Shown piece by piece: positions 7,799 to 10,828 of a stretch of 64,000 bases of DNA; positions within the stretch are counted from its first letter, which is position 1; every line of letters begins with the position of its first letter. A program made the translations under genes and the position numbers. The stretch covers positions 96,001-160,000 of the forward strand of contig CAVSBT010000017.1 in the NCBI GenBank assembly GCA_963726245.1, given 5' to 3'. The notes beneath the pieces were generated by a model, which was not told where the DNA came from, searched no databases, and worked only from the letters and a program-made list of their open reading frames with translations. The stretch is from an uncultured Chloroflexia bacterium. Lineage in GTDB: Bacteria; Chloroflexota; Dehalococcoidia; DSTF01; JALHUB01.

Positions 7799-8244
7799 AT
7801 GAGCGCGTCCAGGAAGGCAAAGTCGGAAGGCCGGGGGAACAAGCGCGGACGGCCCGCGCCGGCCCACGCCAGCCTCGGGCAGCCGCGGGCGAGGAGGGTT
7901 TGGGGCTGGTCGAAGTGCTGGTTGCCGTCGCCATCCTCGGCATGACGTTGGTCGCGCTCCTGGCCGCCCTCTCGACGGGCTCGATAGGCGTCACCACCAC
8001 GGATAGCGAGGTGACAGCCGCGAACCTGGCCCGCTCCCAGCTCGAGTACACCAGGAGCCAGCCGTACGCCGAGGTTCCCACTGAATACGCCACAGTGACG
8101 CCGCCGGCCGGATACACCGTGTCAGTACAGGCCGCCTCCATCCCCGAGCCCGTCACCGACACCAACATCCAGAAGATCACCGTTATCGTTGCCAGAGACG
8201 GCAAGACGCTGGCGACGGTTGAAGACTACAAGGTCAAGAGATGA
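7799..8244 (+). CDS. Minor type IV pilin (leader apparently frameshifted)
   Basis: GEEG|LGLVEVLVAVAILG with E5 retained. The ATG at 7799 gives a basic leader but is one base out of frame. Confidence 0.75.
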
Positions 8245-10828
8245 AGGCGAGGAGAGGCGAGTCGGGCTTCACCCTGGTCGAGCTGCTGGTGGCCCTGGCC
8301 ATCGGCTCGGCTGTCATCGGCCTCCTCTCGACGGTTCTCTTCCAGTTCTTCAGCACCACCGGTCAGGGCCACGACAGGCTGGCGGTGCTGCACGACCATG
8401 ACATCGCCTTCGGGTGGCTCAATCGCGATGCGCAGATGGCGGTGCCCGAACTTGCGACGGTGGTCCCCTCCGGCGTCACCCTCTACTGGTCGGACGAGGT
8501 CGCCGGCACGACCTACCAGGCCTCGTACACGCAGTCGGGCTCGGACCTGGTGCGCGCCCTAATGGTGGACGGGACGCCGTCGAGCCAGACGGTGGCCCGC
8601 AACCTGGCCGCAGCCCCGGAAGGGTTCAGCGCCTCCAAGAGCGGCAACCTGGTTACAGTGAGCATCACGTCGGCGAAGGGGGCGGTCACTCAGGCCCGGA
8701 CGGAGTCCATCTATATGCGGCCCCTGGGGGTGACGACCACTCCCTTCCCAACGCAGCTTCCGACCGCCACGCCGACGCCCACTTCGACGCCTACGAGCAC
8801 GCCCACACCGACGGCCACCAGCACGCCTACGCCAAGACGAGTACGCCTACGCCGACCAACACGCCGACACCGACGCCCACCAACACGCGGACACCGACGC
8901 CCACCAACACGCCGACGGCGACGCCCACCAACACGCCGACGGCGACGCCTACCAACACGCCGACGGCGACGCCCACCAACACGCCGACGGCGACGCCTAC
9001 CAACACGCCGACGCCAGACGCCAACGCCGACCAACACGCCGACGCCACCACTATCACGCCGACGGCGACGCCTACCAACACGCCCACGCCGACGCCTGTC
9101 TGCGCTGCCATATCGCTCGTCCATAAGTACAGCGCCGTCGTGGGCGACGGAACCAACGGCTTCTCCAGCATCACCGCTACGTACACCACCGCGCCTACGG
9201 CAGGCAACCTGCTGATCGCCGTCTTCGGCGAGAGCGGCAGCAACAACATCAACACGCCGAGCGGCTGGCAGGTCGCCGTCGTCTATCAGAACACCTCGCC
9301 GGGCGGCGCGATCTTCTACAAGATAGCCTCCGGCTCCGAATCCACCGTCACCGTGACGACCACCGGTGGTAGTTCGACCTCCTACGGCATGGGATTGCAG
9401 CTCTATGAGTACAGCGGCATGGCCGCTACCTCGCCGCTCGATGCCGTCGCAACGCCCAGTTCGGGCAGCGGCACGTCTCTGACATCGGGGAGCCTCACGA
9501 CCACGCAGGCCTGCGACCTGCTTATGTCGGGGGCCGCTATCAACACCGCCGCCACCTTCACCTGGGGCAGCTCCTTCACCGAAGAGTTCGACTTCCACAA
9601 CGGCGGCACCAACGAACGTTCTTTCAGCGGTGCAGACCGCGCGGTTGCGTCTACCGGCAGCTACTCTTCCTCGGCGACCGCCAGCGCGTCCGCTGCCTGG
9701 AGCGCGCTGCTGGCCGCGTTCAAGATGGCTGCTCCGACGCCGACGCCTACCAACACGCCGACGCCGACGCCTACCAACACGCCGACGCCCACGGCCACGC
9801 CTACCAACACGCCGACGGCCACGTTCACGAATACGCCGACGGCGACGCCTACAAACACGCCAACGGCCACGTTCACGAATACGCCGACGCCGACGGCCAC
9901 GCCCACCAACACGCCAACGGCCACTCCCTCCGATACGCCGACGCCCACGCCAACAAGCACCGCGACTCCTTCGCCGATGTGGCTGACGACGGGCACCTAC
10001 ACGGGCAACGGCGTCGACGGCAGGCAGATTACCGGTGTCGGCTTCCAGCCGGATGTCGTCATCATTAAGGCCGCTACCAATCGCGCAGGCGTGATCCGCA
10101 CGAGCACGATGTCCGGTGACCAGGCCAAGGTCCTGGGTACCACCACGGCGCTTCAGCCCAACTACATCCAATCATTCATCGCCGATGGCTTTACGGTGGG
10201 CACGGCTGTCCAAGTCAACACGTCAGGTGTGACTTACTACTGGGTGGCGATGAAAGCCGGCAGCAACCTGCATCTCGGCACCTATGTCGGCAACGGCGCC
10301 GACAACCGGTCCATCGCCGGCGTCGGCTTCCAGCCGGTCTGGGTGATCACCCTGGGGGACGGCAACGACTCGGCCTTCCGGCCCGCCGCCTTGGCCGGCG
10401 ACAACTCGTATCTGATGACCGGCACCGGCACGATAACGAATCGTATTCAGGCCCTGCAGGCCGATGGCTTCCAGGTCGGCAGCAACGTGGACGTCAACCA
10501 GTCCGGCACGACCTTCCACTACATTGCCTGGGCGGCGAGCGCCCAGGTATCCCAACAGACCTACACAGGAAATGGCTTGGACAACCGGTCGATTGCCGGC
10601 GTCGGCTTCCAGCCGCAGGTTGTCTGGGTGAAGCGTGACGACGCGCAGGCGTCAGTGTGGCGTCCCGCGAGCGCCGCCGGCGACACAACCCTGTACTGGG
10701 CCGCGACGGCGGCCACGACGAACCGCATCCAGGCGCTCCAGGCGGACGGCTTCCAGGTGGGCACAAATGCCCAGGTCAACACTAATGGCAGCACCTACTA
10801 TTATCTGGCGCTCCGCGACGGCCGTTAA
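8241..10828 (+). CDS. Giant modular minor pilin: pilin head, Pro/Thr linker, beta-rich domain, Pro/Thr linker, three GTYTGNG/GFQP repeats (apparent frameshift ~8835)
   Basis: [22 protein letters not shown] in frame 8241. The TPT repeats switch to frame 8414 at ~8835 and run open to the TAA at 10828. Confidence 0.8.
8760..9097 (+). repeat. Coding tandem repeat encoding (TPTNTPTA/P)n linker 1
   Basis: Repeated ACGCC(C/T)ACCAACACGCCGACGGCG units. Confidence 0.9.
9734..9976 (+). repeat. Coding tandem repeat encoding Pro/Thr linker 2
   Basis: Repeated CCGACGCCGACGCCTACCAACACG-like units. Confidence 0.9.

Follow-up and report, generated by a model that had tools for sequence, protein, structure and literature searches.

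The DNA analysed here (the window) is a stretch of 64,000 nucleotides from contig CAVSBT010000017.1 (positions 96,001 to 160,000 of the forward strand), which belongs to a metagenome-assembled genome (MAG) of an uncultured Chloroflexia bacterium placed in the Dehalococcoidia. On the plus strand of the window, positions 8241–10828 encode, in order, a type IV pilin module, a Thr/Pro stalk (stalk 1), an all-beta middle domain, a second Thr/Pro stalk (stalk 2) and a run of three DUF7483 repeats (the triple repeat), an array that we refer to as the giant pilin (Table 1). At position 8834 its Thr/Pro-coding stretch switches from frame 1 to frame 3, a break that parts the leader, the pilin module and the start of stalk 1 from the remaining domains; read through the break, the gene specifies 198 + 664 = 862 amino acids (aa) and ends with the stop codon at 10826–10828. 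A preliminary description of this DNA had noted a canonical prepilin joined across a single indel at about 8835 into a protein of about 860 aa, with Thr/Pro tracts of about 110 and 80 aa, a beta-rich domain of about 210 aa and three repeats of about 95 aa, and all of these elements were recovered at closely similar size (the repeats measure 95, 93 and 91 aa and are 41–54% identical to one another).

The beginning of the protein is that of a type IV pilin. Translation from ATG 8241 gives a short leader whose last residue is Gly; the mature protein then opens with a hydrophobic segment some 20 aa long and has Glu as its fifth residue. Genes for a prepilin peptidase and the pilus assembly machinery lie in the same operon. 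Residues 4–29 matched Pfam N_methyl (PF07963; E 5.7e-8, 32.5 bits with a cut-off of 21.2), and the N-terminus also exceeded the threshold of TIGR02532 (23.1, cut-off 16.3). Compared with the Protein Data Bank (PDB), the pilin module as a whole, about 160 aa long, and a profile from alignment A2 gave nothing beyond chance-level matches, and a complex prediction of the module with the small minor pilin encoded upstream returned no answer (score 0.00), which speaks neither for nor against binding. Within a pilus operon that is complete, the giant pilin gene stands at the second of the minor-pilin positions.

The fusion of this pilin to its passengers is real: relatives have it uninterrupted in a single open frame, at the corresponding position of a conserved pilus operon. 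The triple repeat was sought in 41 genomes (the window's own and 40 relatives) and matched in 15 of them; eight loci were fetched. Three of the eight (G002, G014 and the one-contig genome G011) encode the full succession of pilin, stalk, middle domain, stalk and triple repeat in a single open frame, as do the proteins P0122 (864 aa), P0271 (878 aa) and P0272 (886 aa), bearing out the prediction of one giant type IV pilin. Six of the eight loci share the order pilC, minor pilin, giant pilin, downstream gene, unassigned gene, pilM, pilN, pilD and pilT, of which the unassigned gene and pilD had no match in G036; the other two hold non-pilin copies of the triple repeat. The pilin module is 53–64% identical to those of 14 relatives and 38% identical to that of a fifteenth. 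Raynaud et al. 2021 (PMC8179133) define a modular pilin as a single polypeptide that joins an N-terminal pilin module to one or more further domains without a specific tie to pilus biology; by this definition the intact orthologues are modular pilins, and the window copy is one if 8834 is read through.

The same pilin carrier bears differing numbers and kinds of modules, and stalks of differing length, in relatives. A pattern of our own for the pilin motif was present in 13 of 120 listed homologues, and the builds that follow the pilin vary widely. The triple repeat may come after a stalk (G013, P0273), almost without a linker in proteins of about 450 aa, twice in succession (G036), or with other domains before and after it (G025); in P0131, P0274 and P0275 the pilin bears the middle domain, to which a single DUF7483 repeat is attached directly without a stalk, and P0277 carries an unrelated beta-rich domain of about 350 aa. 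The length of stalk 1, taken as the distance between the conserved end of the pilin module and whichever module comes next, ranges from 10 to 170 aa in 15 relatives (two further rows were dropped because the pattern missed their first module) and is about 132 aa in the window by the same yardstick; the window's stalk contains a tandem repeat with a 24-nt period (10.5 copies, score 309, Tandem Repeats Finder). Thus the stalk is length-variable as had been proposed, and C-terminal modules do change between orthologous loci. Glycosylation of the stalks is plausible, judging from Thr/Pro linkers in general.

Table 1. Features of the giant pilin gene and its operon in window coordinates, and housekeeping-gene homology elsewhere in the same MAG (coordinates prefixed C30, C31, C37 or C39)
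Feature	Coordinates	Strand	Basis or observation
Class III (prepilin) leader peptide MKARRGESG, last residue Gly before the cleavage site	8241..8267	+	direct reading
Pilin module, mature N-terminus FTLVE..., hydrophobic helix and globular part of ~130 aa; conserved carrier	8268..8750	+	
Thr/Pro stalk 1, 117 aa, with uncompensated break at 8834 and compensated stretch 9017-9047	8751..9097	+	
Middle passenger domain, 212 aa, all-beta	9098..9733	+	AlphaFold model, phage-protein matches
Thr/Pro stalk 2, 78 aa	9734..9967	+	
Triple DUF7483 module and stop codon	9968..10828	+	PF24299, phrog_24898
DUF7483 repeats 1/2/3	~9989-10273, 10274-10552, 10553-10825	+	
Candidate major pilin	4004..4615	+	PF07963, E 1e-7
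PilB-type assembly ATPase	4872-6575	+	T2SSE E 6.4e-128, MshEN E 2.3e-21
PilC-type platform protein	6591-7796	+	T2SSF E 1.6e-62
Upstream small minor pilin, mature LGLVEVLV..., weakly PilV/GspI-like	7900..8244	+	TIGR02523 pilV E 1.7e-5, below cut-off
Downstream conserved protein, pilin-like hydrophobic N-terminus GQALPLALVALAVG, no Glu5	10908..11630	+	
PilM	12322-13233	+	PilM_2
PilN	13167-13823	+	PilN family
Prepilin peptidase	13835-14581	+	A24_N_bact and Peptidase_A24
PilT-like ATPase	14554-15690	+	T2SSE
rpoB homology	C37:113096-116692		3 frame changes; end coordinates modulo 3 = 1, 0, 2, 1 between 115138 and 114073
uvrA homology	C31:58722-61486		2 frame changes
Second uvrA homology	C30:200230-203076		2 frame changes
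secA homology	C39:10486-12805		1 frame change

The earlier assignment of the C-terminal repeats to DUF7483 proved right: the triple repeat matched PF24299 in three stretches (E 2.4e-26, 93.1 bits with a cut-off of 27), and the gene is the only DUF7483 locus in the genome. The proposed link to phages also held. Three stretches matched phrog_24898, 'tail fiber protein' (E 5.7e-38, 132 bits), phrog_19943, 'virion structural protein', was matched with E 2.3e-29, and tblastn located the triple repeat in 18 of 50,697 phage records, mostly pelagiphages and cyanophages, at 23–34% identity, with at least 80% of the query covered in 13 of the 18. The triple repeat makes up nearly all of Synechococcus phage S-CBS2 gp033 (357 aa, annotated 'tail fiber') and the C-terminus of Methylophilales phage MEP301 gp16; the 'tail fiber' labels on these phage proteins are depositors' annotations. 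The gene context in the window is not that of a tail fibre, in that the neighbours over 4.0–15.7 kb are pilus genes and the protein begins with a prepilin leader. What the giant pilin has in common with tail fibres is a module; it is not itself a tail fibre.

AlphaFold modelled the triple repeat with high confidence (predicted local distance difference test (pLDDT) 97.3, predicted template modelling score (pTM) 0.94) as an all-beta structure of three equivalent units, and phmmer against PDB sequences found nothing at E<=10. Foldseek matches in the PDB include APC-beta of an apicomplexan perforin-like protein, the C-terminal domain of PCSK9, a three-domain rhamnose lectin and a single-chain adiponectin trimer, all of which we take to be single chains with three beta-sandwich units around a pseudo-threefold axis. 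On this account we read the modelled triple repeat as a possible single-chain pseudo-trimer. In VIA-align comparisons, at scores below the noise level of 7–8, single repeats resemble the C-terminal sandwiches of phage tailspikes and fibres, and the triple repeat reaches Z 4.0–4.4 to single-chain C1q, APRIL-BAFF-BAFF (TNF family) and Cbln1 C1q-domain trimer chains, again below noise of about 7–8. The pseudo-trimer idea has to accommodate P0131, P0274 and P0275, whose single repeat indicates that one repeat can apparently stand alone.

The middle domain matched no family in Pfam, NCBIfam or PHROG, and phmmer against PDB sequences again found nothing at E<=10. An exhaustive search recovered homologues in 2274 representative proteins at E<=1e-3 (363 at E<=1e-10). 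Pfam domains were scanned in 36 of 150 listed homologues (4 of an intended 40 were dropped for size), and 23 of the 36 had them: in 22 these are domains usual in surface or secreted proteins of bacteria, and the remaining one has DUF7483 alone. The companions are He_PIG, PKD, TIG, fn3, Beta_helix, SLH, a type IX secretion system (T9SS) tail, the peptidases C25 and M23, and GH88. Among ten short homologues looked up, none had an informative name, and one is a 'hypothetical protein'.

In sequence comparisons with phages, neither the window's middle domain nor its homologue P0236 matched isolate phages by tblastn, just 1 of 34 members of the middle-domain alignment matched any PHROG, and scans of IMG/VR with the window domain and with P0245 found nothing; a scan with P0243 gave a 38-residue match that the middle-domain profile did not confirm and that we rejected. 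P0236 led to two IMG/VR contigs. On one of these (L069), positions 8001–9029 encode a 343-aa protein that begins with the middle domain (profile E 1.2e-67; 34% identity to the window domain over 206 residues, E 2e-18) and lies downstream of genes for a head protease and a major head protein, with a tail-spike gene following it (phrog_133, phrog_2234). A 1066-aa open reading frame (ORF) after that tail spike had no PHROG match.

The AlphaFold model of the middle domain (pLDDT 95.4, pTM 0.93) had 87 matches at E<=1e-3 among the viral models of BFVD, the best of them, which include 'minor tail proteins' of Mycobacterium and Gordonia phages, with a template modelling (TM) score of 0.76–0.84 and a root-mean-square deviation (rmsd) of 2.5–3.3 over the whole domain. 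Among the 50 matches shown, 48 had TM 0.61–0.84 and rmsd 2.5–5.9 and two had TM 0.38–0.39; the top match is 34% identical to the middle domain. The earlier statement that the GNLLIA/PSGW domain, as the middle domain had been called, occurs in phages therefore stands on both sequence and fold. In the ESM Atlas the nearest clusters were 66–82% viral, which we treat as a lead only. In VIA the domain aligns as two tandem jelly rolls resembling C1q/TNF-type heads (Z 5.6 at best, below noise), its halves (1–108 and 110–212) each aligning to C1q, a TNF-like lectin, BclA and the PRD1 P5 head at scores below the noise of about 7–8.

Both modules also occur widely outside pilins and phages. In a survey of 36 triple-repeat loci from one-genome-per-species contigs, the pilin motif precedes the repeat in nine, all titled Dehalococcoidia or 'Chloroflexia' MAGs; in other phyla, the repeat sits behind signal peptides in larger secreted proteins. 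Those phyla include Acidobacteriota, Solirubrobacterales and Thermoleophilaceae (which we take to belong to the Actinomycetota), Saganbacteria, Peregrinibacteria, Rokuibacteriota and Proteobacteria, among others. G011 has a second copy of the triple repeat, behind a signal peptide in a 342-aa protein, and a 790-aa protein of G037 (C77; L022 6207–8576, minus strand) consists of a signal peptide, the triple repeat, a very long Thr/Pro/Asp linker, a beta domain and an LPDTG motif with a hydrophobic anchor, which looks like sortase-type display. The non-pilin triple repeats at L036, L037, L045 and L046 follow signal peptides ending in ...N(S/T)F(T/Q)..A..F, a motif that may resemble SipW/TasA-type signal peptides.

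The sequence or fold relatives of the two modules include phage tail-fibre, tail and virion proteins as well as bacterial surface proteins. The preliminary description had placed both modules mainly in phages: their phage links are confirmed, but 'mainly' is not, as many bacterial phyla commonly have them in secreted and surface proteins. For the same reason it does not follow that they were domesticated from phages, as had also been suggested.

In the operon around the giant pilin gene, the true start of the candidate major pilin is later than listed, because the N_methyl motif falls at residues 92–118 of the listed ORF. The conserved protein encoded directly downstream of the giant pilin matched no Pfam or NCBIfam family and is kept in six relatives, and the ORF at 11627–12319, at the place expected for PilO, matched no family. 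Just upstream of the operon, window positions 178–3841 encode an HlyD-like adaptor, an ABC ATPase and a MacB-type permease, in which the FtsX match spans only 41 of 120 profile positions, possibly owing to another indel.

We consider it probable that the locus encodes a modular minor type IV pilin of about 860 aa that serves as a pilus-tip adhesin, with the frame break an assembly error. Several results weigh against this reading. The read check was made with Logan contigs of related strains only (best share of words 0.33), none of which bridges 8834, so the break is not settled by reads. A second gene with the middle domain (G000:C30:84300-85700; L067 4329–5692, minus strand), encoding a signal peptide, the middle domain, a Thr/Pro linker and a further domain, is frameshifted, interrupted by an in-frame stop (AIF*KIA) and truncated at its 3' end, and the metagenome-derived P0125, P0121 and P0123 likewise have out-of-frame Thr/Pro-coding parts. 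The pilin module reached no cut-off among the GspJ/PilW/ComGF core minor-pilin families; its matches to ComGF (21.6 bits, cut-off 80, residues 7–40) and gspJ (17.8, cut-off 64.85, residues 9–68) are essentially N-terminal, leaving room for a distant kinship with this type. Foldseek searches of the PDB at E<=1e-3 gave no match for the middle domain and eight for the triple repeat with TM <=0.31, and the best VIA scores, Z 5.6 for the middle domain and Z 5.2 for the triple repeat (VIA-align, 48,161 chains), lie below the noise level of 7–8. Tip location, adhesion and ligand are proposed by analogy, and we know of no ligand for either passenger module.

The damaged C30 gene, the out-of-frame metagenomic relatives and the lack of a bridging contig leave some room for a real break at 8834. 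The gene would then be a recent pseudogene or an 'off' variant, of which only the pilin module would be made, with an Arg/Pro-rich nonsense tail that frame 1 reads until its stop at 9215, while the passengers stayed silent; because the C30 gene is broken, real decay of such genes is possible. We nonetheless regard a real break as unlikely. In the frame of the passengers, the 664 codons beyond the break are free of stops and 63–79% identical to intact orthologues. Moreover, breaks are the rule in this assembly: when frame changes were counted by family models on housekeeping genes, with frames taken as coordinates modulo 3, the homology to rpoB, two uvrA genes and secA together changed frame at least eight times in 3873 model positions, about 11.6 kb (Table 1). 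Because essential-gene homology in the same MAG changes frame so often, the break at 8834 is very probably an artefact of assembly and not biology; one indel every 1–2 kb predicts one to three in a 2.6-kb gene, which matches what is seen. The downstream pilus gene has lost its conserved C-terminus to a frameshift at about 11545 (the frame at 11482 reads ...RNGRTITVRATASPNAVRVISWQLE*, like the orthologues), and for the small minor pilin upstream there is no start codon in frame, ATG 7799 lying in another one. A programmed frameshift or phase variation at 8834 was rejected, since the site (cgccaagacg) has neither a slippery heptamer nor a long homopolymer, and the want of a tract long enough for phase variation also counts against an 'off' variant. 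A whole-genome scan for frame switches based on GC content at third codon positions was dropped as noisy: it was about 300 nt off on a normal gene pair and missed the pilin gene.

An oddity flagged earlier at 9015–9055 is genuine: here the Thr/Pro repeat is read out of frame. Base 9017 and two bases at 9045–9047 are missing from contigs of related strains, and because these lack the bases we read the stretch 9017–9047 as a compensated out-of-frame passage, most likely an assembly indel error. It would also be conceivable that the locus holds two separate genes, an ordinary pilin at 8241–9215 and an independent secreted protein starting within the linker, and a gene caller would indeed report two overlapping ORFs; yet the second frame has no signal peptide or plausible start after the break, the listed GTG 8414 sits inside the pilin module and in the wrong frame, and all intact relatives are one frame, making this arrangement highly improbable. 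Since the MAG is rich in indels, any 'frameshifted' or 'split' gene of the window is to be distrusted, and a caution for this locus is that the break that made it look odd lies in such an indel-rich assembly.

If the giant pilin is a tip adhesin, a mechanism can be outlined. Once the operon's prepilin peptidase had removed the leader, the mature protein would be anchored in the pilus by its pilin helix. Its most likely place would be the tip, next to the small pilin-like proteins encoded on either side of it. Both modules would be kept tens of nanometres off the fibre by the Thr/Pro stalks and may there recognise a ligand on a surface, probably a glycan carried by another cell or by a particle; retraction by the PilT-like ATPase would then pull the cell to its target. 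The host is presumably a monoderm, as we take Chloroflexota to be. The analogy is with the modular pilins of Streptococcus sanguinis, PilB and PilC, and with what PMC8179133 says of GspK and CofB.

Alternatively, the passengers of a modular pilin might serve some purpose other than attachment, be it trapping phages or phage-like particles as a decoy, sensing, or the modification of glycans. Phage tail proteins have both modules too, and the middle domain accompanies peptidases and glycoside hydrolases in bacterial proteins; in the C30 gene it stands beside a last domain that looks GH114-like to us (WQWQL...DIDLF), a name that no tool assigned. Against an enzymatic role, neither passenger module matched a catalytic family in Pfam, PHROG or NCBIfam. 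A decoy role, which had been raised at the outset, does not follow, because a homologue of a receptor-binding module would bind what the phage binds, its target, and not what the phage is bound by. We think roles of this kind improbable and favour adhesion.

Modular pilins have been described before, PMC8179133 counting more than 1200 such proteins in 264 architectures, and the initial proposal of a novel system was therefore too strong: the giant pilin extends a known kind rather than founding a new one. According to PMC8179133 (see also PMC9934059), S. sanguinis PilB (pilin and von Willebrand factor A (vWA) domain) and PilC (pilin and lectin) likewise graft a binding module onto a small pilin module and are encoded inside a pilus operon among other minor pilins. 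The giant pilin differs from them in its two serial passengers, in Thr/Pro stalks of 117 and 78 aa where PilB and PilC have a short linker, and in carrying DUF7483 and an unnamed double beta domain instead of a vWA or concanavalin-like lectin domain. In CofB of enterotoxigenic Escherichia coli and ComZ of Thermus, a pilin module is similarly followed or interrupted by large beta-rich domains, and both are thought to sit at the tip and mediate ligand contact (PMC8179133). CofB trimerises, whereas the window gene has three repeats in one chain, and our PDB searches gave no sequence or fold match between CofB or ComZ and parts of the giant pilin.

From its phage relatives the giant pilin differs in other ways. 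The whole three-repeat module is homologous in S-CBS2 gp033, MEP301 gp16 and pelagiphage proteins, but the window gene has no virion-attachment part or phage neighbours and is joined to a pilin. The fold of the middle domain is common over its whole length to 'minor tail proteins' of mycobacteriophages and Gordonia phages, to BFVD proteins of uncultured Caudovirales and to the L069 protein. The domain is, however, widespread in surface proteins of bacteria as well, where Ig-like, beta-helix, SLH, T9SS-tail, peptidase and glycosidase domains accompany it. Databases already contain pilin-plus-DUF7483 proteins under automatic names. Literature searches found no mention of DUF7483, no pairing of 'modular pilin' with 'tail fiber' (the supplements of PMC8179133 lay outside their scope), and, judged by titles and the starts of abstracts, no such protein in work on type IV pili or pilins of Dehalococcoidia.

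Relatives of the giant pilin carry none to two kinds of module and one, three or six repeats, and sortase-anchored and freely secreted versions also exist. One speculative extension, which we hold to be doubtful, is that tailed phages and these Chloroflexota share one exchangeable pool of receptor-binding modules, displayed here on the tip of a retractile pilus and reshuffled between relatives. Were this so, the pilus would recognise the kinds of glycan that phages use as receptors and so grapple specific neighbour cells, and the triple repeat would be a pseudo-trimer that lets a monomeric pilin carry a head normally trimeric in fibres.

Modular pilins are regarded as a way in which type IV pili, though simple, come to have many functions. 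To our knowledge, few have been studied, all of them in cultured pathogens. The giant pilin illustrates how an uncultured environmental lineage takes the modular principle further, with one conserved carrier, long flexible stalks and changing passengers, the latter common to phage tail proteins and other surface-display systems. Together with its relatives, it supplies a functional context, surface recognition, for two domains that are modelled with confidence but still uncharacterised: DUF7483 and the unnamed middle domain, the latter present in more than 2000 representative proteins.

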